DNA of 64,000 nucleotides from a virus (Duplodnaviria; Heunggongvirae; Uroviricota; Caudoviricetes). Shown here piece by piece: positions 1 through 27,799 of the stretch. The DNA is taken from IMG/VR virus record IMGVR_UViG_3300020034_000006, positions 1 through 64,000 of that record. One strand, written 5' to 3'. Within the stretch, counting starts at the first letter, position 1. Each line of letters begins with the position of its first letter. The notes under the pieces are model-generated. The model did no database searches. It was given only the letters and a program-made list of their open reading frames with translations, and was not told where the DNA came from. The translations under genes and the position numbers were made by a program.

Positions 1-417
1 GTCTGTACCCCCCGGGGGTACCCCGGAACCTTTCGCGGCCCCCTACCCTCTGACCTGGGCATTAGCATCAGGATACTCGGTATCGTCCATACCCTACCCA
101 GGTATGTGACCTCGGATCGATATACGGGGGTGGGGTATGTGCACCGTGAGCATGCGCTCGCTCTGCATAAGTATGCAAGCCATCGAATAATGAGAGTGAC
201 TATCAACTAGATGACCACACAAATATGAGACGATGACTCATCATGCTGTGTACCCCATGTTGTCACTACCTGTCACGTACACCCTGTCCCACCTACTGGG
301 CCCAGCCGCGAGGCTTAGAGCCTGGCCCTGGTCAGTCGAGCTAGTCACTGTACTGTGCCGAGCCGAGGCAACTAAGTAGTTGACTGCGCAACTAACAAGT
401 ACCCGGGCGCGCAAGTA

Positions 418-441
418 GGGCCGGCCCCGAAGGGCCGGCCC
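418..441. terminator. Perfect 10-bp GC hairpin (GGGCCGGCCC-cgaa-GGGCCGGCCC) downstream of the last leftward gene
   Basis: Inverted repeat read directly from the sequence. It lies just past the stop of the 505..1032 gene. No U-tract, as is common for actinobacterial intrinsic terminators. Confidence 0.4.
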
Positions 442-504
442 TACGTAGAAGGGGCTTAGCTCTCTTAGGGGTTAGCGCTTAGGGGAAAGCCCTAGCGCTT
501 GCGA

Positions 505-1032
505 CTAGGGAGCAACCGCGACGGGGGAAGTCGTCGCATTGTCCCAAACGATGAGGCATGACGTTGCCCCCTCATTCGCACACTGGCCCGGAGTGGAGAT
601 GGGGGTATTGTCCCAGTACCACACTCCGGAGCGATAGGCGATCCCCTGTGCGGCCAGCGCTCCGTTGCCGTAGACGCACGTGCCACCGTTGCACGTCACG
701 TCCGAGAACCGACCGTCGTTGTCGGAGTCATCGCCATAGGGGGTGTCCCCCGTGCCGTCCCATGCTCCGAAGCGCTCCGCCTCGGTAGGTGTCATGGTGG
801 CAGGGTTGGTGCCAGGTGCACGCTCCGACGCGGTAGGAGCGATCGTAGGGGCCTGTGACGGGACGTCGGTACGATCGACCGCGGGTCCGTCGGTATCACC
901 CGCGGTCACGGGCGGAGTGTCGTAGCTCACTGCCGCGGGAGGGGGAGCGCTCGCTCCCTGGTCGTCAGGGTCGCACGCTCCGAGGGTTGCCACGATGATC
1001 GCGGCACCGATGAGGGGAAAGAACTTGCGCAT
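505..1032 (-). CDS. Putative secreted lipoprotein
   Basis: N-terminal MRKFFPLIGAAIIVATLGAC is a signal peptide with an LGAC lipobox. Pro/Ala/Thr-rich linker. RBS context ACAAAGGATGAAACCC upstream. Confidence 0.5.
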   Translation of the reverse strand: MRKFFPLIGAAIIVATLGACDPDDQGASAPPPAAVSYDTPPVTAGDTDGPAVDRTDVPSQAPTIAPTASERAPGTNPATMTPTEAERFGAWDGTGDTPYGDDSDNDGRFSDVTCNGGTCVYGNGALAAQGIAYRSGVWYWDNTPISTPGQCANEGATSCLIVWDNATTSPVAVAP

Positions 1033-1110
1033 TTGGGTTTCATCCTTTGTTTCGGGGTCAAGCGCTTAACGGTGCGCTCGGGTACCGGAGATCCTAGCGC
1101 CTACTAGCGA

Positions 1111-1608
1111 CTATCCGCACAGAAGGCAATTGCAATCGTGGTCTGTGTGCTCGCACGGTTCGTGGCCACCGTTGCAAGGCTTGCCATTGTCGCGTTCGCA
1201 GTTGCGCTCTATCCCGTGAACTAGATCGCGCAGCTCTACACAATCCATAGGCGTTTCGCCGCGGCCGTTGACGTACCCGCCGCGGGTTGGGTCGTCAGGG
1301 TCGACCCTTAGAGCGTACTGCGCTCCACACTGAAAGCATGACTCGTTCTCGTCCTCATGCGAGAAACGATGTCCGTAGGCGGACCAAACGACAGTAACGA
1401 GCGAAGTGCCCGCGGGTTCGTGACCGTTGTCATTGAACCCGCAAACAGACTGTGCACTAGGGCTAGCGATGGGATTGGTAACCCATAGCTCGACGTCATC
1501 CGCGGGCGGTAGCCCTGGCAACGGAGTAGGCGCGCCATACAGCACTAGCGCAATGCGCTCGCGGCAGTGAGCGCACCAATCGCGCTCTAGGACAGTAACT
1601 GTCGTCAC
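1111..1608 (-). CDS. Hypothetical Cys/His-rich protein
   Basis: 165-aa ORF with many Cys/His clusters (CAHCRER, CFQCG, CEHTDHDCNCLLCG). Confidence 0.4.
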   Translation of the reverse strand: MTTVTVLERDWCAHCRERIALVLYGAPTPLPGLPPADDVELWVTNPIASPSAQSVCGFNDNGHEPAGTSLVTVVWSAYGHRFSHEDENESCFQCGAQYALRVDPDDPTRGGYVNGRGETPMDCVELRDLVHGIERNCERDNGKPCNGGHEPCEHTDHDCNCLLCG

Positions 1609-1838
1609 TACGTCACTCCTTGCTCCGCGTAGTAGGCATCTAGCCTCGCCTCATGAGTCTTTAGGCACTTCTTCGTATGGCCTGTCCCGTCGCACTCGCG
1701 ACATGTCCAGTCGGTAGGAATCCAACGATTGGTGTCCTCATCGAATACCGCGCCGCGAATCATTCCGTTGTCGCATTCGCCGAAATCGGGATGTCGATAG
1801 GGGCAACATCCCCCGCGGCAGATAGGGCTAAGCAACAT
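1608..1838 (-). CDS. Hypothetical Cys-rich small protein (start probably the internal MLLSPICRGG)
   Basis: C-terminal 76 aa of the 1608..2018 ORF. Motifs CRGGCCPY and CRECDGTGH. The longer N-terminus overlaps the neighbouring gene. Confidence 0.3.
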   Translation of the reverse strand: MLLSPICRGGCCPYRHPDFGECDNGMIRGAVFDEDTNRWIPTDWTCRECDGTGHTKKCLKTHEARLDAYYAEQGVT

Positions 1839-2346
1839 GGTCGTTCCTTCCCTCGTTACCCCACCAGTAGTCCGGCCAGACATCATCGGACCGCGACTGC
1901 CACGGGACTGCGAAATACTGCAACTTGTCATGCGGCCGATGTCGCATGAATCGAGGCTTAAGGTTGACAGTCCACACAGGCCACACATAGAGACCTGACC
2001 GCACGTACTCACCATCAAACGAGAAGTGAGAGAAGTACTCTAGGACTAGGTCACGCTCGTAACGAGACATGCCTAAGCCTCCCGCGTGCTGATGTTCGCT
2101 CGCGTGATCCTTGAACCATGCCAGCGCTTTAGCCTCATGGTTCGCGGCAAGTCGGACAGGGCGAGCCTTGACGCGTCGGAAGAGCCTTAGGCGCTCATCC
2201 CCTGTCAGGGCTGACTCTCTTCCGCTCGAATCTTCGCCTACCGCCACGGTAGAGATAGCCGCGGCGAATTGGCGAATCTGAGACACAGTGAGAGTGTTTG
2301 TGCTCAAGCGCTCTAGCCACACGCGGTAAGCCCTAGTAGACGTCAT
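1828..2346 (-). CDS. Hypothetical protein
   Basis: ORF 1828..2361. The internal start MTSTRAY at 2346 gives an ATGA overlap with the upstream gene stop at 2343. Confidence 0.4.
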   Translation of the reverse strand: MTSTRAYRVWLERLSTNTLTVSQIRQFAAAISTVAVGEDSSGRESALTGDERLRLFRRVKARPVRLAANHEAKALAWFKDHASEHQHAGGLGMSRYERDLVLEYFSHFSFDGEYVRSGLYVWPVWTVNLKPRFMRHRPHDKLQYFAVPWQSRSDDVWPDYWWGNEGRNDHVA

Positions 2347-2891
2347 GGCGCGGCCCACCAATCAATAGCGGTACTACCCGCTTCCCGAACCGACGCGCCG
2401 TCAACGGGACCGTCGTTAGGGTCGACTACTGGCAAGTGATCTACGGTGCGCTCATCGCCAACACCAACACCCGCGGGATGGTGCTCATCGTGCACCTGGT
2501 CGCGAGCCTCGGTAAGTAGATCACTAAGGATCGTACCGAAGTAGTCGTTAGCGTTCCCTCGCGCCTTCTCGTTACGACAGTAGGTCTCACTGTCCCAAAC
2601 GTCTATTCCCCAAAGGGAAGCTCTTACAACGTTGTCGGGTTGTGAAGTGACGACTACCCCAACCTCTCCCCATTGCTTGCCATGCCTCGCACGCATAATC
2701 GCGTCTGTACGCACGGCGGAGCGGATCGCGGGATCGGGGTGGTTTATCTCGCTTGCACTCACGCCATCGTGACGACCGTCAAGATACGAGATGTCTTGAA
2801 CGTCGTCTACTTCAACGGTCACCACGAACCGAGCGATTGTGTGCGTAGTGCTCGTTTCGTACGTGATCGCTACTTCTGTCTCTTCCACCAT
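2343..2891 (-). CDS. Hypothetical protein
   Basis: 182-aa ORF in the leftward operon. 22 nt overlap with the FtsK-like gene. Confidence 0.4.
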   Translation of the reverse strand: MVEETEVAITYETSTTHTIARFVVTVEVDDVQDISYLDGRHDGVSASEINHPDPAIRSAVRTDAIMRARHGKQWGEVGVVVTSQPDNVVRASLWGIDVWDSETYCRNEKARGNANDYFGTILSDLLTEARDQVHDEHHPAGVGVGDERTVDHLPVVDPNDGPVDGASVREAGSTAIDWWAAP

Positions 2892-4066
2892 TGCACTACC
2901 TTTCCGATTTCGGAGTCTGTGACTAGTGCACCTTGTGCACGCGTCAGGGTCGGCCCGCCATCGCTATAGAGTAGATCACCCTTACCGGTAAGGTTCTCCG
3001 CTCCGATGGCATCTAGGATCACTCTGCTATCTGTGTTGCTCGATACTGCGAAAGCGACCTTTGACGGAATGTTCGCTTTCAAGTCTCCGGTAAGAACCTT
3101 GATACTTGGACGTTGGGTAGCTACCACTAGGTGAACACCAGCGGCCCGCCCTAGCTGCGCGATGCGCAGTAGGGCAGGCTCTACGTAAGCCTTAGCTTGC
3201 ATCATGAGGTCTGCAACCTCATCGATGATGACAATTAGGTAAGGCGTTTCCAAACCACTAGCCCTAGCCTCGCTGATGTTGCGAAAGCCCTTGCTCGCTA
3301 AGAACTTGTAACGCTTATCCATTTCGTCCACTACTTCCAAGAGCGAGCCGATAGCCTCACCCCCCTCGGTAACCACCGGTCGCCACAGATGGGGCAAGCC
3401 CTGGTATTGCGCTAGCTCTACCCGCTTCGGATCGATGAGCAGTAGTTGCAAGTCACGCGGGCTTGCTCCCATGAGCAGACTCACGATTAGCGAGTTAAGG
3501 AACGTTGACTTACCCGCTCCCGTCGCGCCAGCAATGACAACGTGCGGTAGCTCAGTGACGTTAGCGACCATCGGCGCACCATCGGCCGTAAGCCCTATCG
3601 CTATGTCCAGTAAGCGCAAGCGCTCGGAAGCTAGGACGCTTCCGAGCGTGACTAGTTGTCGATTGGGTCGCGGTATCTCGATTCCCATGACCGACCTACC
3701 GTCAACGGTGGTCAGGATGCGCGGGTTAGGCGCTCCGAGTATGTATCCGATATCCGCCTTAAGAGCGGTCAACCGTGACACTCGCTCCGAGAGACCTAGG
3801 GCCAGCTCAAACCGAACGACCGAAGGGCCCGCGACGATGTCGACCAGGGCCACGGATACGCCGCGGGAGGACAGGCCAGTAACCAGCCTGTCCGCATACC
3901 CGCCTAGATCGCTCCCTAAGGCTCTCGGAGCGCTTCCGAGGGTATGTAGGGGCGGAAGCTCCCACGCGCGGCCCCTACGACGTCTAGGGCCATCCCTCGC
4001 GGCGTGCGCTCGCCGCGCCTTGACGACCGCGGCGACACCCGCGCCCGCTAGGGCAAATTCAAGCAT
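2870..4066 (-). CDS. FtsK/SpoIIIE-family DNA translocase ATPase
   Basis: Walker A VIAGATGAGKSTFLNSL and Walker B LIVIIDEVADLM. VVATQRPS motif and motor-domain pattern VVRFELALGLSERVSRLTALKADIGY typical of FtsK. Confidence 0.85.
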   Translation of the reverse strand: MLEFALAGAGVAAVVKARRAHAARDGPRRRRGRAWELPPLHTLGSAPRALGSDLGGYADRLVTGLSSRGVSVALVDIVAGPSVVRFELALGLSERVSRLTALKADIGYILGAPNPRILTTVDGRSVMGIEIPRPNRQLVTLGSVLASERLRLLDIAIGLTADGAPMVANVTELPHVVIAGATGAGKSTFLNSLIVSLLMGASPRDLQLLLIDPKRVELAQYQGLPHLWRPVVTEGGEAIGSLLEVVDEMDKRYKFLASKGFRNISEARASGLETPYLIVIIDEVADLMMQAKAYVEPALLRIAQLGRAAGVHLVVATQRPSIKVLTGDLKANIPSKVAFAVSSNTDSRVILDAIGAENLTGKGDLLYSDGGPTLTRAQGALVTDSEIGKVVQWWKRQK

Positions 4067-4322
4067 TGTCGTTCGCGTCCAACATGTCTGCGATGTCGCT
4101 TAGCTCTTTGGGAGTGAGGTTAAGCGTGCGAGTCATCTCCTTACCGGCGAACCGAACGCGAAACCAGTCCTCATCATCCGCGGGACCCATGTCGACTACG
4201 CGGCGAATCTCGTTACGTCGGTAGTGGTCACTCATTCCGTCACGCTTTCCATGTCTTCCACCATGGCCTGTGTCGTTAGCCATGCCTCGATAGCGCGGCC
4301 CTGCTCGACTACTGCGCGCCAC
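4059..4322 (-). CDS. Hypothetical protein
   Basis: 87-aa ORF with tight spacing in the operon. Confidence 0.4.
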   Translation of the reverse strand: MARSSRAGPRYRGMANDTGHGGRHGKRDGMSDHYRRNEIRRVVDMGPADDEDWFRVRFAGKEMTRTLNLTPKELSDIADMLDANDNA

Positions 4323-4690
4323 GTGCGCTCTTGCTCGCGATACGCGGCGACCGTCATCGCTCCGACGTCGGAAAAGAAATCGGACAGGTAGTCATCAAAC
4401 TCTCGCTCACGATTGCGGAGACTGTCCGCGACGTTGTCGACAACTTCCGCGACAGTCTTGCTTGGAAGTAAGTCACTGCCACCGGTGAATTCGCCTACGT
4501 CCCAACCGATACCGACACTAAACGGGATGTCGATATCCGTTCCCTTGTGCGAAAGCCGGATATTGAAGTCGTAACCCTCCCAGCCATCGCGTTGGAACGC
4601 GTCCGGACCGCTGATCATTTCACCAGTTATCCGATACTTCTTGACAAACTCAATCGCTCGCATGTTCGTTGCCTCTTTCCGTAGTGCCAT
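4232..4690 (-). CDS. Hypothetical protein
   Basis: 152-aa ORF. Confidence 0.4.
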   Translation of the reverse strand: MALRKEATNMRAIEFVKKYRITGEMISGPDAFQRDGWEGYDFNIRLSHKGTDIDIPFSVGIGWDVGEFTGGSDLLPSKTVAEVVDNVADSLRNREREFDDYLSDFFSDVGAMTVAAYREQERTWRAVVEQGRAIEAWLTTQAMVEDMESVTE

Positions 4691-4731
4691 GACGCGTACC
4701 GAACCGAGTAGGGCCCGCTACGCGTGTAGGT

Positions 4732-5058
4732 CTACGAATTGGAGCGTTCGCGTCTTGCCTTCAACTGTTCGTCATTCTCTACCGAGAGAATGCCAGCCTT
4801 GACGTAAACGCGCTTACCGACGTCGGTAGCGAGAATACGGCCGATGAATCCGACGACCGACCACGATTCGCCGAACGCGTGAATTGAGCGCTTGCCAACG
4901 TCTTCGGGTTGCAGCTCGTAATACGAGCGCTCTTCGGTCGACCAATGAATAGCGCGCCGAACGTCGTTGTGATGTCCGTAGACCATCATTCGTCGGAGCG
5001 CTAGCCGCGCCTGATACGCGGTAAGCCCTTCAATGACATCACGCAAGTTGTCAGCCAT
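4732..5058 (-). CDS. Hypothetical protein
   Basis: 108-aa ORF. Confidence 0.4.
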   Translation of the reverse strand: MADNLRDVIEGLTAYQARLALRRMMVYGHHNDVRRAIHWSTEERSYYELQPEDVGKRSIHAFGESWSVVGFIGRILATDVGKRVYVKAGILSVENDEQLKARRERSNS

Positions 5059-5404
5059 CGGACTCCGGCCCGCCTTTCGCTAGTTTGTATCCCTCGTAAG
5101 CGTTCTCAAAGTTCGCGTGATCCCATCCGCGGTGATAGTCGGCACGCTCGCTCTTTGCGTAGAGAACGGCCGATGCTTTCTCGTCGTCTGTCATGAGCGG
5201 AGCATTGGCGAACATGTTGGCATCGGGATCAGGGTCAACTAGATCCCCGTCGTCAACCCATGAGTAGAAGTCGTCGTAGCCTTGCTGCCACGCCGCGGAC
5301 TGTTCATCGTAGGTAATGGTCACTTGTGGCACTCGCATTCGCACTTTGGCGCTTCCGGCCAATCGGTCGGGTTGGCGAGATGCGCATCGTATTTGGTGAC
5401 GCAC
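5051..5404 (-). CDS. Hypothetical protein (true start may be internal MRVPQV near 5338)
   Basis: 117-aa ORF. The N-terminus overlaps the upstream gene in another frame. Confidence 0.35.
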   Translation of the reverse strand: MRHQIRCASRQPDRLAGSAKVRMRVPQVTITYDEQSAAWQQGYDDFYSWVDDGDLVDPDPDANMFANAPLMTDDEKASAVLYAKSERADYHRGWDHANFENAYEGYKLAKGGPESDG

Positions 5405-5688
5405 TTGTCATGGTCCAAACGGAGACAATGCAACGAATGCGAGAACAGTTCTCCCGCGATACGCTTAGCCTCTTTGGCATCCTTCGCATGAGTCCGGCCC
5501 GGATACATTACGGGGTTGATGAAATAACCGCCAACCGCTGGCTTGAACGGTGCAGTGATGAACTTCAACTGTCCGTTCTGATATGGGCCCCATTGCACAG
5601 TGACCGTGACGTCGGTTAAGTCTTTCCCCTCATCAGGGAAAAAGTAGAGATCACCTAGACCCGCGTCAACCTTGCGAATCTTGCTCAT
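5320..5688 (-). CDS. Hypothetical protein
   Basis: ORF 5320..5724. The internal start MSKIRKV at 5688 gives an ATGA overlap with the stop at 5685. C-terminal CECECH. Confidence 0.4.
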   Translation of the reverse strand: MSKIRKVDAGLGDLYFFPDEGKDLTDVTVTVQWGPYQNGQLKFITAPFKPAVGGYFINPVMYPGRTHAKDAKEAKRIAGELFSHSLHCLRLDHDKCVTKYDAHLANPTDWPEAPKCECECHK

Positions 5689-6149
5689 GACTCCTCGCTT
5701 TCGATACCGATAGCCACGGTCCAACGCTCGCCATAGGACCGCGTCTCTTTGACAAGGTCCACACGGTAAAGGTGCTCATGTCCCATATAGGCGACTAGGT
5801 CGCGATCATCTCCGAGTGACGTACCGGTATCGCGAACCGCGTAGTAGAGCGTCATCTCGTCGCGCACGTGCTTGGCGAGCCAATGCGCATCGTGATAGAG
5901 ATCCGAGTGATAATGCTTCACTACCCCATCGGTCAGGGGGACCATGGCACCGAAGAGGAGCGCTAAGAGCGAATCCCATAACCCTTCGGTACGCGTGTCT
6001 TCGGTATCGGATCGCAAGAAGTGTCGACCGATGAAACGGAAGCCATCTTCTCGCATATTCTCCGCGAGGCTTTCGTTCTCTTGCTCCTCGCGCATCGCGA
6101 CGGTTTGCGCTTGCTCTTCCGCTGAGTCTCTTTCATCGTTGTTATTCAC
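5685..6149 (-). CDS. Hypothetical acidic protein
   Basis: 154-aa ORF with an acidic N-terminus. Confidence 0.4.
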   Translation of the reverse strand: MNNNDERDSAEEQAQTVAMREEQENESLAENMREDGFRFIGRHFLRSDTEDTRTEGLWDSLLALLFGAMVPLTDGVVKHYHSDLYHDAHWLAKHVRDEMTLYYAVRDTGTSLGDDRDLVAYMGHEHLYRVDLVKETRSYGERWTVAIGIESEES

Positions 6150-6275
6150 TGTCGTTCCCTTCCTACTGCCCTAGGTACGTCATGGTCTGAACGTTGCCCA
6201 GCCATGCAATTAGTTCGTAGACGACCCATACCGGAGTGATCACGATTGCCACGCGTCGCCAGTAGGTGCGCACAC

Positions 6276-6479
6276 TCATTCGATAACCTCCAAATAGGCA
6301 ATGCCACCGTTCTTAGATGGCACTTGCGCAACGCGGCCCGCCGCTATGGCCTGCTCTATCTCTGACATTAGCGCGGGATGGTGAGTCCGGTAATCCGAGC
6401 CAGAACGCTTTAGGTAAGTGCTGAGCGTCCACCTATGCATTTCCGACGCGGCAAGGTACCCGTCAAGTAGCTCGCTCAC
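6276..6479 (-). CDS. Hypothetical small protein
   Basis: 67-aa ORF. Confidence 0.3.
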   Translation of the reverse strand: MSELLDGYLAASEMHRWTLSTYLKRSGSDYRTHHPALMSEIEQAIAAGRVAQVPSKNGGIAYLEVIE

Positions 6480-6644
6480 TGCAACGTCTTACAACGGTGG
6501 TCGTAGTAGCTCACCAATCCGAGAACGCGACCCATGGTGTCAATCCGAGTGTCATCGGTCGGATTGCTTTCGTACTGAGTCATTAGCTCATGGACGCGGT
6601 TCCAAACGTTGGTGGTCAATTCCTCGATTGTCATAGCCATGGGT
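6480..6644 (-). CDS. Unlisted small ORF (54 aa, MAMTIEELTTNVWNRVHELMTQYESNPTDDTRIDTMGRVLGLVSYYDHRCKTLQ)
   Basis: Hand-translated from the minus strand. Preceded by AAAGGATGAACCC, the same RBS context as the 505..1032 gene, and by the conserved intergenic module. Confidence 0.35.
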
Positions 6645-6662
6645 TCATCCTTTGTCCCTAAT

Positions 6663-6714
6663 AACTAGGTGTCCGGACAGGAACAGTGTTCCTGTCCAGA
6701 GATCTAGCGACTAG
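6663..6714 (-). promoter_or_regulatory. Conserved intergenic module copy 2: TAACTAGGTGT - palindrome GGACAGGAACA-g-TGTTCCTGTCC - AGATCTAGCGACTAG
   Basis: Shares both flanks with the copies at 1085-1114, 7997-8046 and 8446-8495. Lies immediately upstream (minus sense) of a gene start. Confidence 0.45.
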
Positions 6715-7022
6715 TCCCCATCGTTGCCTTGCAAGGAAAGAGGCCAGCGCTTAGGCACCAATCCCTTAGCGCGATGCTCTTTGTCCGATTGACGCAAGTA
6801 ATTCGCGTAAAACTCCCCGTAGCTCGATTGGGCTTTCTCGTATCCCTCTTCGATGACACGCCCGTAAGCCTCTTCGGACATCCAACCCTCACCCGCGAGG
6901 CAAACACCACACATATCGCCAGAAAGCGCTAATGCCTCTCCGTTGTCGCGGTAGGCGATACCGGTGGGCAGGCCACCGGGCCGGACACTCTTACGGTTGC
7001 AGATTGAACATCGTCCGGCCAT
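6711..7022 (-). CDS. Hypothetical zinc-ribbon protein
   Basis: 103 aa with CSICNRK...CGVC Cys pairs. Confidence 0.4.
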   Translation of the reverse strand: MAGRCSICNRKSVRPGGLPTGIAYRDNGEALALSGDMCGVCLAGEGWMSEEAYGRVIEEGYEKAQSSYGEFYANYLRQSDKEHRAKGLVPKRWPLSLQGNDGD

Positions 7023-7025
7023 GAC

Positions 7026-7202
7026 TTAACCCCGTAGCTCGATTGTCTCGATGAACGGCACTTCGATATAGATAGCGTTCCCATCCTGGTCTTGACCGAC
7101 TTGAATCAATTTGATTCCGCCGTCATGCCCCATACAGAGCACGTACTCGCTATCGATACTGTGTTGCCTACGGTCAGGACATCGCACGTTTGTTGCTTCC
7201 AT
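7026..7202 (-). CDS. Unlisted small ORF (58 aa, MEATNVRCPDRRQHSIDSEYVLCMGHDGGIKLIQVGQDQDGNAIYIEVPFIETIELRG)
   Basis: Hand-translated. It fills an otherwise empty 180-nt gap. Codon usage is lower-GC than the neighbours. Confidence 0.3.
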   Translation of the reverse strand: MEATNVRCPDRRQHSIDSEYVLCMGHDGGIKLIQVGQDQDGNAIYIEVPFIETIELRG

Positions 7203-7206
7203 GTCG

Positions 7207-7911
7207 CTAGCCCTTCCTAAACGTGAGGTCGCACGTTTCGCATTTGATCTCGCTCTTTGGCATGGCGAGAATTCCGATTATCCCGAACATGGCACCAAAC
7301 GCTTTCGCACCCGCGGAGCGCTTAGCCTTGAACGACGAACCGTGGCACCGCGGGCAAGTGCCATCCGCGGCAGCTTCGCTAAAGCGGAGTAGCCCTAGAG
7401 CGGACAGGGCTGCAACGCGGCGGCGCGTCGAGCGCTCCGCCCTGGCACGTGCGTACTCAGCGGGAACCTGTCCGGAGTGAAGGATTGGGGACCCTGTCCG
7501 CGGCAGCTCACCGCGCTCGCTCGCGGTGTGGTCGTTCATCCTGTGTAGGTAGAGCGCACGTGCGCTAGCGAACTTGCGAGGACATCCCCCGATGTCGCAA
7601 GCGGTCACGGGGTCACCGCGTGAAAGGCGTTTGCCAGCCAATCCGCATAGAGCGCAAGCGCTCCGATGCGCCAAACGATGGCAACGGTTGCGAGCGCTCC
7701 GCTGGCAGCAAGGAACGCGGCTAGGCGTTCCCTCATCGTGCCGCGTCGACACTGAGAGCGGAGTCATCAACGTTGTAGTCAAAGTCCGCGAGAACAATGA
7801 CAAACGTTGAAACGTCTTCCACGTCCGACCAATCGCTAGCAGTCCGCTCTTCCACGATGGCGCGCAGCCTGGTCGGGTTGGAAGGCAGATAGCGATGCAT
7901 CGCCATATCAA
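7207..7911 (-). CDS. Hypothetical protein with a C2H2-type zinc-finger motif (true start probably internal, about 7767)
   Basis: CDIGGCPRKFASARALYLHRMNDH fits C-x4-C-x12-H-x4-H. C-terminal CPRCHG zinc ribbon plus a hydrophobic segment FGAMFGIIGILAM. Confidence 0.4.
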   Translation of the reverse strand: MIWRCIAICLPTRPGCAPSWKSGLLAIGRTWKTFQRLSLFSRTLTTTLMTPLSVSTRHDEGTPSRVPCCQRSARNRCHRLAHRSACALCGLAGKRLSRGDPVTACDIGGCPRKFASARALYLHRMNDHTASERGELPRTGSPILHSGQVPAEYARARAERSTRRRVAALSALGLLRFSEAAADGTCPRCHGSSFKAKRSAGAKAFGAMFGIIGILAMPKSEIKCETCDLTFRKG

Positions 7912-7987
7912 GAGCGGCGGAGGTCACGGTATGCGTACCGTGACCCTTAATGGTCACGTTGACGATATCGAGCATTGCGTTTCTCAC
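7733..7987 (-). CDS. Hypothetical protein
   Basis: 84-aa ORF. The conserved module lies directly upstream. Confidence 0.4.
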   Translation of the reverse strand: MRNAMLDIVNVTIKGHGTHTVTSAALDMAMHRYLPSNPTRLRAIVEERTASDWSDVEDVSTFVIVLADFDYNVDDSALSVDAAR

Positions 7988-7996
7988 TTTCGTCAG

Positions 7997-8046
7997 TAAC
8001 TAGGTGTAAACGCACTCCGGAGAGTGCGCTTAGATCTAGCGACTAG
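7997..8046 (-). promoter_or_regulatory. Conserved intergenic module copy 3 (TAACTAGGTGT - hairpin CGCACTC-cgga-GAGTGCG - AGATCTAGCGACTAG)
   Basis: Near-identical to copy 4, read directly from the sequence. Confidence 0.45.
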
Positions 8047-8130
8047 CGAGCATGTGTGCGATGGGTGGCCACCACGTAGCGTAGATCGCTACGGATACCA
8101 GCAAGCCGATTCCGCATTGCATGCGAGCGC

Positions 8131-8427
8131 TCATCCTAAGTCGTATTCGGGATGACCAGGGAAGCGCATTGAAACCGCTCCAGCGTCTTTCATTGCCCAC
8201 GCGAGAACGTCATAGGTCTCTTCTTCCGTGATCCCGTCGCGGTTGTCGGTAAAGAACCGTCCGGAGTAGTAACGCACGTTGTCGTCGTCCCACAGAGTGA
8301 ATCGCACGCTCTCGCGCTTCACTCCCGCGGGCGGAATCTCTCCGTACTCGTTACCGGACCTGTCCGGTAACCCCTCAATGGGCATTTCTTCCGCTAGATG
8401 GTCCTTGTCGATAACCCAACCGAACAT
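8131..8427 (-). CDS. Hypothetical protein
   Basis: 98-aa ORF with RBS GGAGGA upstream. Confidence 0.45.
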   Translation of the reverse strand: MFGWVIDKDHLAEEMPIEGLPDRSGNEYGEIPPAGVKRESVRFTLWDDDNVRYYSGRFFTDNRDGITEEETYDVLAWAMKDAGAVSMRFPGHPEYDLG

Positions 8428-8445
8428 GTCGTGTCCTCCGTTTAG

Positions 8446-8495
8446 TAACCAGGTGTAAGCGCACTCCAGAGAGTGCGCTTAGATCTAGCGACTAG
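8446..8495 (-). promoter_or_regulatory. Conserved intergenic module copy 4 (TAACCAGGTGT - 10-bp hairpin AAGCGCACTC-caga-GAGTGCGCTT - AGATCTAGCGACTAG)
   Basis: Read directly from the sequence. Upstream of the 8131..8427 start. Confidence 0.45.
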
Positions 8496-8751
8496 CGAAA
8501 GCGTCGATATCGAGCGACCAACTAGCAACGCTCCGACCATCGTGATCTACGGCCGGACGTTCCCCCTCGGACCATCCGCACCATGAGAGTGACTGCGCAA
8601 CATGGTGAACGATCCGAGCGACTTGCTCACGCTCTTCCACAGTAGGAAATTCGGTCTCGATGTCCGGAATATCGATGATGATTCGCACGTGCCTTGCCTC
8701 TTTCAATCGACCAGCGAGCCGCGACGTTCTGACGCGTTGAAGTGAGCGCAT
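8485..8751 (-). CDS. Hypothetical protein
   Basis: 88-aa ORF. First gene to the left of the 900-bp non-coding region. Confidence 0.45.
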   Translation of the reverse strand: MRSLQRVRTSRLAGRLKEARHVRIIIDIPDIETEFPTVEEREQVARIVHHVAQSLSWCGWSEGERPAVDHDGRSVASWSLDIDAFASR

Positions 8752-9523
8752 CGGTCAGACGACGTCCGACCTAGCCTCGCTAGCGCGGCCCGGGTATTCG
8801 GTCCCTGACGTATCGAGCTAGGTACTGGTCGCTCGCGTCGAATGGCGGTCAGGGGTGTTACTGGCCTGACCTACGCATTCCCGTAGACCCTTCGCGCCTC
8901 CGGTTAAGTGCTCCCTACTGCCCGCGTACGGGAAGAGCTGCCGAACCATCATCGGTCGCTAAGTCTGGCCTGCCCAATTTCCGGCTTGGCACTAGCCGTC
9001 ACCCCCTACGTCCCGTTTCGTGCGAGCGGAGCGCTCGCCGCGGGTGGAGTGATTCCCTGCCTATGTGCGGGCCCTTCGCCTCGCCCCCGGGTAGACCGAG
9101 CAAGCGTAGCGATCAGGGTGACTTACGGGACATCCAGAGAGTACCCCCGATGGCGTACCCCTGTGTCTAGAACCTGTGACGATTGGGTTACGAAACCGAG
9201 CGTTTCCCCTAGGTGCGTACTGCCCTAGACGTGGGATGGCCGGAGTACCCTCTAGAGCGTCCCCTAAGCGATTTCGTACGCTGGCGGCCCCTAGTACCCA
9301 TGGCGGAGGCTCGCGGGAGATCTCCGGCCAATCGCCTCTTGTCAAGAGGCTTGACCAGGGGATCTATAACCTGCACGTACGTACAACTACCGCTCATGGT
9401 GGTAGCGCGTCGACACAGAGTGCCGGAAACGTACGCGTGTTCGCATCGCACCTAGGCGAGCGCTTGCTTGGACCCTAGCGCTTGCTTGCAAGGCGAACGT
9501 GCGTTCTGTGACGGATTTCTCAA

Positions 9524-9552
9524 AGTTTCTACTTGACTTCCGCCGCGATCCG
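9524..9552 (+). promoter_or_regulatory. Candidate sigma-A-like promoter TTGACT-N17-TAGACT
   Basis: Hexamers read directly from the sequence with 17-nt spacing. Points rightward into an AT-rich non-coding stretch. Function unknown. Confidence 0.25.
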
Positions 9553-9607
9553 TAGTAGACTGGAGGGTTGGCCCCCTGGGCGAGGGTGGCCGGCGGAGCG
9601 GCGGCCC

Positions 9608-9680
9608 GATATAGGGTCGATATCGGGCGCCTAAATTATATAATATAATATATAATATTATAAGAAATTTCTAGCTAGCC
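9608..9680. other. Palindrome CCCGATAT-N-ATATCGGG followed by a ~45-bp pure A/T tract (TAAATTATATAATATAATATATAATATTATAAGAAATTT)
   Basis: This is an extreme local composition for a ~65% GC genome. Candidate origin/DNA-unwinding element or a strong promoter region. Confidence 0.4.
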
Positions 9681-10217
9681 GCGGAGCCCGGCGAGAGCCG
9701 GCTCGATGGCTTCGACTGCCGGGGCCAGGCCCAGGCGGACGTCGACCTCGACGCAAAGGTAGCCGGCTCGCCTAGATCGCTCGACCATGTCCTTCGTGCC
9801 ACGAGTGGACCACAGGGGCCTGTCCAGGACGGCCATGACGAACAGCGGGTGGTAGCGGTCGAGCATGAGCTGATTGCGCCGTAGACCGGCAGCAGGGCAG
9901 TAATCAGAGCCATTGCCGCGCCGGCGTCGATGGCCAGGGCTACACCAACCAGCCTCGAAGTCGCAGGGAGCCTGCCAACAGGCAGGCTCCGTAATGCAGG
10001 GGATGCGCAGAGCTGCACACGCAGCCTTCACGTAGCCATCTGAGCCGTGAGCGCCACCCTGCACGACATTGAGGCCAGGCCCTAGCACTAGGCGTAGGTG
10101 GCTCATCAAGGCGTTGATGGTGTCGCTCGGCTGGCAATCCCGAGGACCGGTGGTGACTACGGTCAGCTTTTCCAAATTCCCTCCCGGAGAATTCCGAAAA
10201 AACGAAAACACCCCCAT
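9675..10217 (-). CDS. Hypothetical protein (first ~40 codons are AT-rich and probably non-coding; real start likely internal near 10106)
   Basis: 180-aa ORF containing a GGAHGSDGYVKAACAAL motif. The N-terminal codons (ttttcgttttttcggaattct) do not match the genome's codon bias. Confidence 0.4.
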   Translation of the reverse strand: MGVFSFFRNSPGGNLEKLTVVTTGPRDCQPSDTINALMSHLRLVLGPGLNVVQGGAHGSDGYVKAACAALRIPCITEPACWQAPCDFEAGWCSPGHRRRRGNGSDYCPAAGLRRNQLMLDRYHPLFVMAVLDRPLWSTRGTKDMVERSRRAGYLCVEVDVRLGLAPAVEAIEPALAGLRG

Positions 10218-10235
10218 ACGGTTTCTGGGGGCGCG

Positions 10236-10309
10236 GCGACCCCCCTTAGGGGTCTTTTCAAATCCGGCTCGGCAGAATCCCGAAACCCTGGCGACCCCCC
10301 TTAGGGGTC
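10236..10309. repeat. Two direct copies of GCGACCCCCCTTAGGGGTCTT, 51 bp apart, with further copies at about 10541 and 10712
   Basis: Identical 21-mers at 10236-10258 and 10287-10309. The core palindrome CCCCTTAGGGG recurs at 10541-10553 and as a variant at 10710-10728. Confidence 0.5.
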
Positions 10310-10537
10310 TTCCACGAGACGCAGCCGGCGGGCATGACCGCCCATGCCACAGGCCTCGAACACCTCAGCATCGAACTCGGAGTGTTCCCACTCGTGATCA
10401 GCAGCATCACAGCAGTGCTCAAGTGAGCAGGCACGACCATCTTCGAGGATGATGAAGTCCCCGTCACGCTCGGCTATGCGAAGGTGTTGGTAGCGACAGT
10501 CACAGACGAGGTCGCCTACCTGAGGATCGAAGGGCAT
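10301..10537 (-). CDS. Hypothetical Cys-rich small protein
   Basis: 78 aa with CDCRYQHL...CSLEHCCDAADHEWEH. Confidence 0.4.
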   Translation of the reverse strand: MPFDPQVGDLVCDCRYQHLRIAERDGDFIILEDGRACSLEHCCDAADHEWEHSEFDAEVFEACGMGGHARRLRLVEDP

Positions 10538-12027: not shown

Positions 12028-12577
12028 ATCGAGACTCTACGCCCTGGCTGCGGCGCACACGAGCGATGTAGTCGGACCGTGTCTCTCCGCGGTTCTTGGC
12101 CCGTGACCAGCCCCGATTGTGAGTCGGACAGAAGCCGTCCTTGATCCGGTTCTCCTCCCCGCCTGGCATCCACAGGTTGCAGGCCACGCAGTGGCCCGAG
12201 CCCGGAACCCGGGCCTCCTCCTCAAGGATGCGCTGAGCCTCGCGACGCTTGGCCCTGCCCATGATGTCCTCGTACACCCCGTCGACCCGCGTGAGGCTCA
12301 GGTCGAGGCCGGTGAGGGCCTTGGTGAACGAGTCGTACAGGGTGCCCTTGCGCATCGAGCGAGTGCACGCCACCGTGCCAGTCTGGTCGTTGTAGCCGGG
12401 GTCCTCTGCGGAGTGGTCGTGGCCACCATGAGCCCGGTCAGAGCTGTAGTGACGTCCCCTCAGGGGGGACTGCTGTTCCTTCGCCACACTCAAGGCGGTG
12501 TCTCCACCGTCGATCAGCTTCTTGGCCACCGTGATCAGATGCCGAGCGATGTGCTTCGGCCGGGGTGCTTGTTGCAT
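12011..12577 (-). CDS. Hypothetical protein
   Basis: 188 aa. The CVACNLW...CPTHNRGW spacing could reflect a metal-binding nuclease-like site, but this is not established. Confidence 0.4.
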   Translation of the reverse strand: MQQAPRPKHIARHLITVAKKLIDGGDTALSVAKEQQSPLRGRHYSSDRAHGGHDHSAEDPGYNDQTGTVACTRSMRKGTLYDSFTKALTGLDLSLTRVDGVYEDIMGRAKRREAQRILEEEARVPGSGHCVACNLWMPGGEENRIKDGFCPTHNRGWSRAKNRGETRSDYIARVRRSQGVESRYDIEA

Positions 12578-13815: not shown

Positions 13816-14105
13816 GCGCTGCAATCCTTCATCACTCGTTGCTTCGCACGGCATATGTCGGCCTGGCCCAAGTAGAAGTGCTTGAGACACACGGGGAACT
13901 GGGCCTCGGACAGCTCTCGCGCTCGCCACCAATCCTCAGTGCCGTCGCTGCTTGCGCCGAGGTCTACCCAGCAGGTGTGAATGCCATCCTTGTGATGATG
14001 CACGATGACGTCACCGTCGGCACCGAGCTTGTATCCGGCTTCGCTCATGCACATGCGAAGCTTCTCCGCCATCGCCTCTGCCTCTTCGAGGGTGGCGTAG
14101 GTCAT
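13812..14105 (-). CDS. Hypothetical protein
   Basis: 97-aa ORF with a 4-nt overlap with the primase gene. Confidence 0.4.
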   Translation of the reverse strand: MTYATLEEAEAMAEKLRMCMSEAGYKLGADGDVIVHHHKDGIHTCWVDLGASSDGTEDWWRARELSEAQFPVCLKHFYLGQADICRAKQRVMKDCSA

Positions 14106-15874
14106 GCGTAGCTCCTGCGCAGCTCGAAGCGAATAGGGGAGTCCGACTCCTCACCCATTGCGTTCTGCACGCCGATGTTGAAATCGATTTGCCACTGGCT
14201 CCCGCCCCACTGGCGGGAGCCGAACTCGACATCGATGAAGAAGTCCCCGGTGTTGAGGTTCGCCGGTTCGCGTTCAGCGGTGAACATCCACGAGTCGACC
14301 CACTCACCCGAGCCCGCCATCGTGATGCGGTTCAGGCCCCTCGACTCCGCGCCCTTCTTGAAGTGGTTGACGATGAGCAGGTTGCTGCCGTGCTCGATGA
14401 ACGGAGCGGCCACTGCGGTGAGCAGTGCGCCCTCCTCGTGGATGTTGGCCGAGTTCGTCTCGGACCCGTGGTAGGCGTAGAACGGGTCAATGACCGTGAG
14501 CACCGGGTCTAGGTGTTCGAGGGCGTTCTCGATCGTTCCCTTGAACGCCGGGCTCAACAGCGGTGCTGTCTGGAACACCGAGTGGATAGGCACGTCACGG
14601 ATGTCACGGATGTCAACCGACTCGGCGATACGAGGCATGCGCCTCGTCCACGGAATGCGCCCACCCTCGCCGATGAACATCACCACGTTGCCTTGCTTCT
14701 CCACCGGGAACTGCCCGAGGAAGGGACTACCCGTCGCCACCGCCAGGGCGAGGTACTGGGACAGGTAGGTCTTCAAGGTTTTCTTCTCGCCTGCGATTTG
14801 ACCATAGGTCGGGATGCACACAACGTTGCGCACAAGCCAGTTCAACTTGAGGTCAGACGCCATCAGCTCTTGCATCGTCCACATGCGCAACCGTGGCTGC
14901 TCCATCGCCAGCACCTTCTCGACGTCATCCTCGTTCCCGCCGGCATCGAGGATGATCTGCTCGATGAAGGTTCGATCCTTGTCGCGCTCTTCGAGCCCGA
15001 CGCTGACGTTGGCCCTCACTCTTGTGCGTGCGCCTTCGAGCGCACGCCGGTACTCCCGCGTCGCCTTCACTGCGTCCGCCCGATCCCTCACAGCGCTCGT
15101 GAAGGCCATTTCGAGGCTCATCAGGGCCAGGGTCGCCCCGGCGTAGCCCAGCAGCTCGTGGCTGCACAGAGCGGCCACTGCGAGAGTCATGGAAGTGTGT
15201 CGGTCACCACGAGGGTCGAAGCTGTTGAAGGCCTCGGTCACCCGGGGGTGCCAGGCGTCCATGGGCTCAAGGCGAGCCTCAGGCGAAGCGTACGGATCAT
15301 CGAGCTTGGCCTCGGCCTCCGCTACCGCTGCGGTCCTGAGGCGTTGCATCACCCAGTCCGGCGCTTGGATCATTGCCGAGAAGTCATGGCCGTAGGCGTA
15401 GTAGTAGCCATCATTGTCTGGGGCCACCACATAGCCGGCGTCGCTGCGGACGTTGACTCCTTTGCAGAGATCATGGTTGCCGACGTGCTCCGAGCGATCG
15501 GGCTTGTTGAGGTAGATGTGAGAGCCACCGGATGGCGTGCGCACCATCGCCGTCCGCCCATCCCACAGTCCGCTCTTTGAGGAAGTAGCAGCGAAGCAAA
15601 CGGCTTCGAGGTTGTTGGGGCCGCTCACACCGCCCTTGACGTCAACATCGAGGACGATGTACCCAAGGCTCCCGGGCACCAGGCCAACCATCATCGTGTC
15701 CTCGTGCTCGAACCACCAGAGGTCGCGGGTCTCGCTTGAGGCGTCCTCGAACCCTCTCTTGACCAGGTGCGTGACCGGGCTCTTGTCGCCACGCAGGGGC
15801 AGCACCTTGCCTCCCATGACCATGAGGGACAGCGCTAGCTCACGAGGGATCATCGGGGTGGAACTCCCATGCAA
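14102..15874 (-). CDS. Bifunctional DNA primase/polymerase (PrimPol-like) domain protein
   Basis: The N-terminal region carries the acidic beta-strand motif GYIVLDVDVKGG and the surrounding pattern typical of the PrimPol N-terminal domain. 590 aa with a long C-terminal domain. No Walker A motif was recognised. Confidence 0.65.
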   Translation of the reverse strand: MHGSSTPMIPRELALSLMVMGGKVLPLRGDKSPVTHLVKRGFEDASSETRDLWWFEHEDTMMVGLVPGSLGYIVLDVDVKGGVSGPNNLEAVCFAATSSKSGLWDGRTAMVRTPSGGSHIYLNKPDRSEHVGNHDLCKGVNVRSDAGYVVAPDNDGYYYAYGHDFSAMIQAPDWVMQRLRTAAVAEAEAKLDDPYASPEARLEPMDAWHPRVTEAFNSFDPRGDRHTSMTLAVAALCSHELLGYAGATLALMSLEMAFTSAVRDRADAVKATREYRRALEGARTRVRANVSVGLEERDKDRTFIEQIILDAGGNEDDVEKVLAMEQPRLRMWTMQELMASDLKLNWLVRNVVCIPTYGQIAGEKKTLKTYLSQYLALAVATGSPFLGQFPVEKQGNVVMFIGEGGRIPWTRRMPRIAESVDIRDIRDVPIHSVFQTAPLLSPAFKGTIENALEHLDPVLTVIDPFYAYHGSETNSANIHEEGALLTAVAAPFIEHGSNLLIVNHFKKGAESRGLNRITMAGSGEWVDSWMFTAEREPANLNTGDFFIDVEFGSRQWGGSQWQIDFNIGVQNAMGEESDSPIRFELRRSYA

Positions 15875-18891: not shown

Positions 18892-18896
18892 TTAGT

Positions 18897-19214
18897 TCAT
18901 TCTCCTCTTTCGTTGTAGAACGCCCTGACTAGGCGCTCCGCTTCAACCCGGTCCTCGATGGTGAGAATCGGGATGGCGCGGTCTTGTTGGAGGATTCGTT
19001 CGATCAGCCGCGTTGATTGCTGGGAGTGGCTGTAGAGAGCCAACAGCTCGGTTGGCCGAACTAGATCGGCACCGATCTTCACGAGGGTCTGACGCCTCCA
19101 TCTAGACCTGAACACCGACAACCACACAGATGCCAACCCACCAAGCACCAGGCAGGCGATAACCAGCTTCAACGTCATTCGCCGTACCCATCGTCTGTGG
19201 TGAGGTCGGCCCAC
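18897..19214 (-). CDS. Small single-TM membrane protein, possible partner of the SPFH protein
   Basis: 105 aa with TM LVIACLVLGGLASVWLSVF. Stops 6 nt before the SPFH start. Confidence 0.4.
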   Translation of the reverse strand: MGRPHHRRWVRRMTLKLVIACLVLGGLASVWLSVFRSRWRRQTLVKIGADLVRPTELLALYSHSQQSTRLIERILQQDRAIPILTIEDRVEAERLVRAFYNERGE

Positions 19215-27665: not shown

Positions 27666-27738
27666 GCGTTTTGGGGCCCTCGTAGCTCAGGGGACAGAGC
27701 GGTCGCCTCCTAAGCGACAGGCCGCAGGTTCGAGTCCT
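27666..27738 (+). tRNA. tRNA-Arg (anticodon CCU, reads AGG)
   Basis: Hand-folded cloverleaf. Acceptor GCCCTCG/CGAGGGC, D-arm GCTC-AGGGGACA-GAGC, anticodon stem GTCGC/GCGAC with loop CTCCTAA, T-arm GCAGG-TTCGAGT-CCTGC, discriminator G. No encoded CCA. Confidence 0.8.
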
Positions 27739-27782
27739 GCCGAGGGCGCTGTGACAATTGTCTTGCCTCTCGGCGGACGGCT

Positions 27783-27795
27783 CGATACGGTATCG
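27783..27795. promoter_or_regulatory. Operator copy d (CGATACGGTATCG, perfect 6-N-6 palindrome), 5 nt upstream of the GTG at 27800
   Basis: Opposite orientation to copies a-c. It shares the GGCTCGATAC flank with copy c. Confidence 0.5.
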
Positions 27796-27799
27796 CATC

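Follow-up and report, generated by a model that had tools for sequence, protein, structure and literature searches.

We describe here a family of short intergenic cassettes in a 64-kb window of DNA (positions 1 to 64,000 of IMG/VR virus record IMGVR_UViG_3300020034_000006), which is a tailed-phage genome in reverse orientation with the majority of its genes on the minus strand. Each cassette consists of two conserved arms that flank a variable, perfectly paired hairpin, and full copies number 16 in seven genomes, namely the window and six related metagenomic phages. We propose that the cassette is a lineage-specific boundary element of the phage's rightmost, minus-strand operon, one that would act as an intercistronic RNA punctuation element on a polycistronic mRNA and would also supply portable homology for gene shuffling. 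We hold this reading tentatively, at a probability of roughly 0.45.

The window carries three full copies, all on the minus strand and numbered here as in the original prediction, such that transcription reaches copy 4 first. The 15-mer CTAGTCGCTAGATCT has three exact occurrences in the window (6700-6714, 8032-8046 and 8481-8495), as does ACACCTRGTTAYT (6660-6672, 7995-8007 and 8444-8456), again always on the minus strand. As had been noted from the window sequence, copies 3 and 4 are alike (95% identity over 55 nucleotides [nt]) and copy 2 carries an unrelated palindrome, GGACAGGAACA-g-TGTTCCTGTCC. Of the four copies then listed, those at 6656-6716, 7991-8048 and 8440-8497 stand, while "copy 1" proved to be a different hairpin element, which is described further below.

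We scanned related contigs with a descriptor that combines a perfect hairpin with a flank score (maximum 26). The scores were bimodal, with members at 22-26 of 26 and a background mode at 12 of 26. Besides the three copies in the window, there is one in L011, three in L017 and L034 (two contigs that join inside a cassette and are counted as one genome), one in L031, five in L030, one in L024 and two in L035. A covariance model built from these 16 family members gave the window copies 64-73 bits (E about 1e-13 to 1e-15) and recovered exactly the 16 copies at 62-77 bits on the sense strand; the antisense strand scored 16-42 bits. In the 316 kb searched, which took in the remainder of the window as well as a cluster M mycobacteriophage, the model found no other member, and the earlier statement that the motif is absent from the rest of the 64 kb is thus upheld. 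A weak match to the model (18.8 bits, E 0.11) at 3605-3657 (minus) in the FtsK-like gene, composed of CTAGTCAC followed by a 10-bp hairpin (GCTCGGAAGC/GCTTCCGAGC), is probably a chance match or a relic.

Searches further afield were consistent with restriction of the family to this lineage. Pattern scans of IMG/VR, JGI metagenomes and 185,579 reference bacterial genomes returned no copy beyond the lineage, only chance matches. An exact 15-mer scan of IMG/VR gave 12 loci, of which 11 were chance matches, and L013 and L038 were likewise chance matches. No cassette was present in the stretches scanned of three more distant relatives (L027-L029; PrimPol identity 53-58%). Against Rfam, a cmscan of positions 1-10500 at E values up to 1 yielded no match at the cassettes and two weak, unrelated matches elsewhere.

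Alignment of the 16 copies defined a sharply bounded unit of 54-61 nt, immediately outside of which the sequence is not conserved. Nine positions of the left arm, CTAGTCGCTAGATC, are invariant in all 16 copies, and each of its other five positions varies in one or two copies only. The right arm, CACCTAGTTACTAG, is less conserved than the left, and roughly 28 nucleotides per cassette are conserved in total. Between the arms lies a G+C-rich hairpin, which we call P3, with a perfectly paired stem of 10-14 bp and a loop of 2-10 nt (often a tetraloop, with UUCG, UCCG and GCAA among them); it varies between copies, and the arm-to-arm distance ranges from 26 to 33 bp. The earlier description of conserved flanks around a swappable palindrome, followed by a ribosome-binding site, therefore holds as the description of a conserved family. 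An inverted-repeat search showed, in addition, that the flanks are partly complementary and are not independent boxes, such that the whole unit is an imperfect inverted repeat with arms of 24-28 nt around a perfect palindrome. Single-sequence folds of the sense RNA (-32 to -33 kcal/mol; z-scores of -4.1 to -5.6) predict a stem P1 (CUAGU/AYUAG), a 1x1 mismatch, a stem P2 (GCUAG/CURSU), a 3x3 internal loop (AUC/CAC) and P3. A suggestion that the left arm closes all three reading frames was wrong, as it closes only two; whole cassettes close all three frames in 12 of the 16 copies, which is weak evidence.

The P3 stem bears clear marks of selection for pairing. Each of the 11 aligned pairs has changed on both sides, pairing holds in 99.4% of cells, and the covariation score of 0.52 compares with 0.21 in shuffles and at most 0.10 when the partner strand was slid. 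The 191 P3 pairs comprise 175 Watson-Crick pairs, 16 G·U pairs and no A·C; on the complementary strand, the G·U pairs would be C·A mismatches. One such pair is found in copy 3, whose P3 has one G·U pair more than that of copy 4 and would have a mismatch if read on the other strand. P3 is also more stable on the sense strand in 13 of the 16 copies. Because of these compensatory changes, the occurrence of G·U without A·C and the greater sense-strand stability, the sequence pattern indicates that P3 has been under selection to base-pair within a single-stranded molecule of sense polarity. The obvious candidate for that molecule is mRNA, and single-stranded DNA of the sense strand would also fit. 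The alignment of copies in relatives that had been put forward as a check thus confirmed the conserved architecture, in 16 copies, and showed palindromes that evolve in a helix-like rather than an operator-like manner.

Placement relative to genes is equally regular. All 16 cassettes are in sense orientation. One copy (L035a) lies at the start of its contig, where the upstream stop cannot be assessed, and in the remaining 15 the upstream open frame ends at a TAG of the left arm, at positions 2-4 in 10 copies and positions 9-11 in five. The next start codon follows 60-90 nt from the cassette start (5-35 nt from the cassette end), with a Shine-Dalgarno (SD) sequence before it. In the window, the gene at 8131-8427 starts 14 nt past the right arm of copy 4, behind a GGAGG SD sequence, and the start of the small open reading frame (ORF) at 8036-8134 overlaps the stop of the preceding gene (ATGA), while its own TAG stop forms positions 9-11 of the copy 3 left arm. 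Among the gene starts first assigned, 1032 was correct, and those at 6644 and 7987 move to ATG 6640 and, most likely, to ATG 7975. The "unusual start context" ACAAAGGATGAA(A)CCC seen at two of them turned out to be an AAAGGA SD sequence and a spacer of 7-10 nt before the true ATG. The internal ATG of this context is out of frame or opens a 5-codon ORF, and the AAAGGA context is common in relatives, including at genes without a cassette. We also considered whether the anti-SD-like CACCU of the right arm sequesters the ribosome-binding site; this idea was rejected on account of its poor pairing with the downstream SD sequence. The coordinates of the cassettes and of the genes around them are collected in the table.

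Table. Cassettes, related elements and genes of the 64-kb window
Feature	Position	Strand	Details
Cassette copy 4	8440-8497	minus	covariance model 73 bits, E 1.7e-15
Copy 4, left arm	8482-8495	minus	CTAGTCGCTAGATC
Copy 4, P3	8456-8481	minus	stem 11-12 bp, loop 2-4 nt
Copy 4, right arm	8442-8455	minus	CACCTGGTTACTAA
Cassette copy 3	7991-8048	minus	covariance model 72 bits
Copy 3, left arm	8033-8046	minus	
Copy 3, P3	8007-8032	minus	
Copy 3, right arm	7993-8006	minus	CACCTAGTTACTGA
Cassette copy 2	6656-6716	minus	covariance model 64 bits
Copy 2, left arm	6701-6714	minus	
Copy 2, P3	6672-6700	minus	stem 13 bp, UCUGGACAGGAAC/GUUCCUGUCCGGA
Copy 2, right arm	6658-6671	minus	CACCTAGTTATTAG
Gene upstream of copy 4	8485-8751	minus	88 aa, phrog_9027; TAG stop = left-arm positions 9-11
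Gene between copies 4 and 3	8131-8427	minus	98 aa, phrog_12268
ORF upstream of copy 3	8036-8134	minus	probable membrane peptide, 32 aa, MSARMQCGIGLLVSVAIYATWWPPIAHMLASR
Gene downstream of copy 3	7733-7975	minus	80 aa from ATG 7975, phrog_34528
Gene upstream of copy 2	6711-7022	minus	103 aa; TAG stop = left-arm positions 2-4
Gene downstream of copy 2	6476-6640	minus	54 aa; AAAGGA SD 7 nt before ATG 6640
"Copy 1"	1033-1113	minus	separate intergenic hairpin element upstream of lipoprotein gene 505-1032
Left-arm-like site	494-510	minus	CTAGTCGCAAGCGCTAG, at stop of last gene; without cassette hairpin
FtsK-like ATPase	2870-4066		identical protein also on an 83,385-bp metagenomic contig
PrimPol-helicase	14102-15874		
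Large serine integrase (recombinase)	33393-34919		
Tape-measure protein	60992-63931		

A scan of positions 1-10000 called neither a sigma-70 promoter nor a U-tract terminator at the cassettes, and transcription must therefore run through them to the FtsK-like gene and other conserved downstream genes. A reading of the cassettes as plain terminators fails: the G+C-rich hairpin of a canonical intrinsic terminator is present, but its tail is CACCUAGUUACU instead of a U-tract of 7-9 nt, and the conserved genes downstream would go untranscribed. For mycobacterial RNA polymerase, intrinsic termination has been shown to need the U-tract (PMC3993855). Upstream of the operon is a non-coding spacer of ~0.9 kb (8752-9670), in which a block at 9285-9384 (minus) is conserved in five genomes. 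The block includes an invariant CTTGACA (TTGACA at 9340-9345, minus), ~590 nt upstream of the operon's first gene, and may represent a promoter for the operon together with an operator, with a leader of ~590 nt behind it; it is consistent with a single upstream promoter and read-through of the cassettes. At 17 nt past the CTTGACA, an AGATCT/CAGCTG palindrome is found where a canonical -10 would be expected, with GGAGATCTCC at 9316-9325, and a second conserved block lies in the spacer at 8929-9004. Plus-strand ORFs in the spacer (8908-9478) were rejected as genes because their translations do not resemble those of coding sequence and it is the nucleotide sequence that is conserved.

The phage is an uncultivated, actinophage-like siphovirus of high G+C content, and genes for DUF397/HTH_31 and DUF732 in its relatives make soil Actinobacteria the candidate hosts. 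Searches against GenBank phages found no DNA similarity in near or distant mode, tblastn with the PrimPol and FtsK-like proteins returned remote relatives only, and further locus searches with the FtsK-like protein and the PrimPol alignment gave the same single related contig again. PrimPol and FtsK-like homologues in a large protein collection led to contigs of at least six further related phages, with PrimPol identities of 64-76%. A syntenic relative of 89 kb (IMG/VR UViG_3300021976_000008; loci L011, L015 and L016) stops where the window starts. Position 1 is thus near the genome end, which places the cassettes in the rightmost, co-oriented operon of the phage. The relatives have a common backbone for this right-end operon, consisting of small genes, F7, the FtsK-like gene, F14, F0 and, last, the lipoprotein gene F2. 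In the window and in all relatives, the right-end module has a lower G+C content (55-60%) and is rich in CTAG. As these properties and the synteny are common to all relatives, the module has long been a conserved component of the lineage rather than having entered it recently as a mosaic insert, contrary to the mosaic origin suggested at first for the left 8.7 kb of the window. The first 10 kb contain 64 of the window's 145 CTAG sites, some of them inside the FtsK-like gene. Both G+C content and G+C at third codon positions are lower in the right-end module than in the remaining genome, where CTAG is depleted, and the same is true of L011, L017, L030, L031 and L035.

Within the operon, a synteny map of eight right-end regions showed that the cassettes lie at the 5' end, in a hypervariable block whose genes are small and for the most part orphans, and the genes that flank the cassettes differ from genome to genome. 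When the window is compared with L011, the surroundings of the cassettes are homologous only over the 55-61 nt of the cassette itself, at 87-96% identity, with unrelated neighbour genes on either side; conserved genes of the same two genomes show DNA identities of only 70-80%. The cassettes thus mark mosaic junctions, in that they are islands of identity between non-homologous genes. The lipoprotein gene, which is at the genome end in the six other genomes carrying it, lies between two canonical cassettes in L030, and at the site of the first cassette of L035, L011 has a different hairpin before the homologous gene. P3 is often common to copies within one genome (copies 3 and 4 of the window, L030a/e and L035a/b). 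One P3 type, TARGCGCAYY..., recurs across genomes, and the other types are unrelated. The association with mosaic junctions would follow most simply from the ~55 bp of shared sequence. For the PeSL elements of T4-type phages, recombination at shared repeat sequence has been argued and partly demonstrated (PMC2839356, PMC4122927).

In the model that we favor, the sense transcript would fold into a three-tier hairpin, with P1 and P2 as a lower stem, then the 3x3 loop and the variable P3. Punctuation would consist of endonucleolytic processing at this site and stabilization of the resulting 3' end, with an architecture similar to that of a T7 RNase III site; partial attenuation would be an alternative outcome at the RNA level. 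The invariant arms and the internal loop, possibly together with the lower stem, could be recognized by a conserved factor of the host or the phage. The conserved nucleotides would, as a side effect, offer portable homology for the insertion, loss or movement of single genes. The RNase III sites of the T7 early region are intercistronic hairpins in a polycistronic transcript, in which an internal loop separates an upper from a lower stem, with stems of ~10 bp each, and copies within the phage resemble each other, as the cassettes do. The predicted cassette folds have the geometry of the R1.1-type sites, a mostly double-helical hairpin of ~20 bp or more that contains an internal loop (P1 plus P2, 10 bp; a 3x3 loop; P3, 10-14 bp), but the arms are far more constrained in sequence than RNase III requires, and cleavage is hypothetical here.

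Several observations weigh against this model. Processing and attenuation are effects that we infer purely from the architecture. RNase III normally does not need 14 invariant nucleotides, and the strict conservation therefore points to a further factor, yet Pfam and PHROGs scans of ~40-50 window proteins detected no RNase or other nuclease, sigma factor, RNA polymerase or RNA-binding protein. The preference for G·T on one strand would equally fit a folded single-stranded DNA site, and the 16 copies are not independent, such that we estimate ~7-8 independent G·U events. In the lower stem, P1 and P2 have no double-sided covariation, which they cannot display because they are mostly invariant; six of their pairs vary one-sidedly and two are broken in 3-5 copies, and five copies have a C·C mismatch and three a G·G mismatch. 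Read on the antisense strand, the conserved A12·C3' juxtaposition of the internal loop would pair as G·U, and only 8 of the 16 full cassettes fold better on the sense strand. The full element thus lacks an overall strand preference, because the internal-loop A·C would pair on the antisense strand, and the arms therefore appear to be conserved primarily as sequence.

We considered several other explanations, two of which assign the cassette a role in initiating transcription. In a composite terminator-promoter, in the sense of the PeSLs, P3 would terminate or attenuate and the arms would form a non-sigma-70 promoter at which a phage-modified or alternative holoenzyme restarts transcription. The cassette has the PeSL-like layout, from upstream stop to downstream SD and ATG with a stem-loop between conserved boxes in a hypervariable orphan-gene block (PMC2839356), and the very strong conservation of its arms suits recognition of DNA by a protein. 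Tail-less terminators, moreover, reportedly occur in the early region of actinophage phiC31 (Ingham et al. 1995, cited in PMC3993855). We nevertheless regard this explanation as rather unlikely. No match to a -35/-10 pair was found in or beside any cassette; the best -10-like hexamers lack the invariant final T, with a G at position 2 in three copies, and manual inspection of the 16 aligned copies revealed no TANNNT hexamer at a conserved position. The variation of the arm-to-arm distance is incompatible with split promoter boxes, if transcription began beyond the right arm, the start codon would be only 5-35 nt away and the initiation site would fall on the SD sequence in some copies, and the proteins scanned include no phage RNA polymerase or sigma factor. 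The U-tract requirement of the mycobacterial polymerase (PMC3993855) also counts against the terminator half. From the original prediction of a terminator-promoter unit the hairpin thus remains, and neither a U-tract nor a promoter match accompanies it; the interpretation of the cassettes as a promoter family is likewise contradicted by the missing -35/-10 pair and the spacing of 26-33 bp. That interpretation had included private operators, with each palindrome as the site of a copy-specific dimeric repressor, which we consider the least credible of all the explanations. The palindromes are indeed perfect, and that of copy 2 differs from those of copies 3 and 4, but they drift via compensatory changes (at 11 of 11 pairs) and G·U intermediates (16, with no A·C), around loops of 2-10 nt, which is the signature of a helix and not of protein contacts. 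Many different repressors would moreover be needed for a handful of tiny orphan genes, and no promoter is detectable.

A further explanation places the action of the cassette at the DNA level. The arms could be the site of a lineage-specific DNA-binding protein, or the folded single strand could be an attC-like recombination site, an explanation that we judge distinctly unlikely even though a good deal of the architecture agrees with it. The left arm is invariant and the right arm looser, as in the ESAS elements (PMC3203893); two boxes, an unpaired spacer and a variable terminal hairpin, in one orientation and 3' of small promoter-less ORFs, parallel the layout of attC; strand-specific G·T tolerance also suits single-stranded DNA folding; and there are both a gene relocated between two cassettes, in L030, and "empty" hairpin-less versions (L036 6379 and L024 12183). 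However, the attC core RYYYAAC...GTTRRRY is absent, since the right arm reads GTTAYT and an AAC is lacking in the left. A tyrosine recombinase was found neither close to the cassettes nor in the set of window proteins scanned; the integrase of the window is a large serine recombinase, and relatives with tyrosine integrases (L027 and L028) have no cassettes in the stretches scanned. A double-stranded binding site would not require P3 to pair, and ordinary homologous recombination at ~55 bp of identity accounts for the mosaic junctions with no dedicated machinery. A more specific version, in which the cassette would serve integron-like capture of single genes without an IntI-type integrase, as a structured recombination site that either folds as single-stranded DNA or acts via RNA, strikes us as quite improbable. 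The invariant arms would then be recognition or crossover boxes and the variable hairpin a counterpart of the variable terminal structure of attC. Highly improbable, too, is a selfish miniature palindromic repeat of the REP or MITE kind that spread without a function for the phage. The cassette is short, palindromic and multi-copy, with 1 to 5 copies per relative, and its P3 is often common within a genome, as in the pairs named above. Such a repeat would not be expected to be missing from 185,579 reference bacterial genomes and from IMG/VR beyond the lineage, nor to have a strict orientation and an exact placement at the stop codon and before the SD sequence. The arms are conserved though the proteins of the relatives are only 64-76% identical, while P3 turns over, which argues for long-term selection and not recent spread.

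The closest described elements, namely the PeSLs, the ESAS and the CR3/CR4 repeats of cluster M, have the logic of the cassette family but not its sequences. The family is set apart from them by a stop codon in the invariant arm, by mutually complementary arms and by a covarying hairpin with a strand signature. PeSLs, found in T4-type myoviruses (Arbiol et al. 2010, PMC2839356; Comeau et al. 2014, PMC4122927), likewise place a stable stem-loop between conserved sequence, are concentrated in hypervariable blocks of small orphan genes and form homology islands at junctions of insertion, deletion and replacement, and the cassette conforms to their definition as a stem-loop unit bounded by an upstream stop and a downstream SD sequence and ATG. 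PeSLs include an early promoter of the sigma-70 consensus, preceded by an AT-rich UP region, whereas the promoter scan found none at the cassettes. Unlike PeSLs, with which they share no sequence similarity, the cassettes have arms that are mutually complementary and embed a stop codon, and they reside in a siphovirus-type genome of high G+C content rather than in T4-like myoviruses. Terminator, promoter and mini-circle activities have been demonstrated for PeSLs, whereas any activity of the cassette is hypothetical.

ESAS of cluster K mycobacteriophages (Pope et al. 2011, PMC3203893) resemble the cassette as imperfect inverted repeats with a variable center, located just upstream of translation starts in one orientation, with a better conserved left repeat and a lineage-specific consensus. 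ESAS have 17-bp arms and a non-palindromic spacer of 4-13 bp, whereas the cassette has arms of ~14 nt with a self-complementary hairpin of 26-33 nt between them; unlike in ESAS, the center is itself a covarying hairpin and the left arm holds a stop codon. The SAS consensus GGGATAGGAGCCC, to which ESAS are tied, has no match in the window at up to two mismatches. For the ESAS arms, the authors found no support for RNA pairing and proposed a site for a DNA-binding protein (PMC3203893). The CR3/CR4 repeats and stem-loops of cluster M (Pope et al. 2014, cited in PMC7953290) lie between many small genes of the rightmost co-oriented block of an actinophage genome of ~83 kb, and gene insertions are there accompanied by a repeat copy, as is the case for the cassette. 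The intergenic regions of phage Estes share with the cassette variable hairpins flanked by partly complementary conserved sequence and followed by an SD sequence and ATG. In cluster M, the conserved part is mainly an SD-containing repeat (ACACACGGAGAAGGGAA in Estes), a type with no above-chance match in the window, and the cassette model found nothing in Estes 62000-83601.

With integron attC sites, the cassette has in common conserved paired boxes, an unpaired spacer, a variable terminal hairpin, strand-specific folding and a location 3' of small co-oriented ORFs, with the stop codon sometimes included. It differs in that the core sites RYYYAAC and GTTRRRY are not matched by CTAGTCGCTAGATC and CACCTAGTTACTAG and in that not every gene has a cassette. 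Neither an IntI-type recombinase nor attI or Pc was found, and among the right-end operon proteins the only Pfam match was that of the FtsK-like gene, with no recombinase family.

Conserved intergenic repeat or hairpin cassettes thus recur in unrelated phage groups, as the T4 PeSLs, the cluster K ESAS and the cluster M CRs show. The family described here is an unusually clean case, with its sharp bounds, its stop-codon arm, its covarying hairpin with a strand signature and its association with mosaic junctions. It offers a testable model of how long phage operons may be punctuated in high-G+C hosts without canonical terminators and of how short conserved boundary sequences may promote the shuffling of ORFans, and the arm motif serves well as a marker by which this uncultivated lineage and the boundaries of its genes can be recognized.

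Outside of the family, the element previously listed as copy 1 has the form TCCGGTACC-GAGCGCxACCGTxAAGCGCTC and is conserved in five of the seven genomes that carry the lipoprotein gene. Its likeness to the cassette left arm extends over the first ~10 nt only (TAGTCGCTAG-like; aTAGTCGCTAG, including the upstream stop codon). It was missed by a motif search with up to three mismatches and by the covariance model, and its classification as a degenerate member is accordingly withdrawn. Hairpin-less or degenerate versions of the cassette do occur at L024 12183, L036 6379, L031 8361 and window 494-510; the L036 site, whose position corresponds to that of the window site, resembles a hairpin-less cassette (CTAGTCGCTAGcgcTACACCTAtt). 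Beside the hairpin-less, cassette-like L024 12183-12230, the spacer of L024 carries at ~12250-12330 a sequence whose terminal GGTTCGAATCCTGCCTAGGCCACCA resembles a tRNA 3' end.

Two other hairpins were observed in the operon region. At 4691-4731 (minus), between two operon genes, is an intercistronic hairpin (ACGCGUAGCGGGCC...GGUACGCGU, about -21 kcal/mol) whose flanks are unrelated to the cassette and which is directly followed by the next start codon, with no obvious SD sequence. At 415-444, past the operon's last gene and near the genome end, a very strong perfect hairpin, GUAGGGCCGGCCC-UUCG-GGGCCGGCCCUAC (sense, minus), is present, and relatives have equivalent hairpins at this position, followed by a conserved end sequence, TTGCGCGCCCGC...GATTAGTTGCGCAGTCAACTACTT.

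Elsewhere in the window, positions 41838-47284 encode a GDSL lipase-domain protein (650 aa), a glycosyltransferase, a C-methyltransferase and an NAD-dependent epimerase/dehydratase, which together look like a sugar-modification module. At 51158-52363 (minus), a 5'-nucleotidase (NT5C) domain is fused to a dATP/dGTP diphosphohydrolase N-terminal domain, and the fusion protein may be linked to nucleotide-pool manipulation or DNA base modification. In a plus-strand block, two tRNA-Arg genes at 27676-27749 and 28780-28853 (CCT and TCT anticodons) flank the gene of a DUF7873 protein (27758-28534). Among the relatives, the spacer region of L011 contains an AT-only, low-complexity stretch at 5330-5375, TTTTTTTTTTCTATTATGTATTATATATATATATATATAAAG, within a genome of otherwise 60% G+C, which may be an assembly artefact or an origin-like element. 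The distant, cassette-less L028 has three copies of a different conserved repeat (14790-14832, 15337-15379 and 18381-18423), which resembles a sigma-70 promoter (TTGACA-N17-CATGAT, then GGGCATG), and a block of ~59-bp tandem repeats at 18830-19130.

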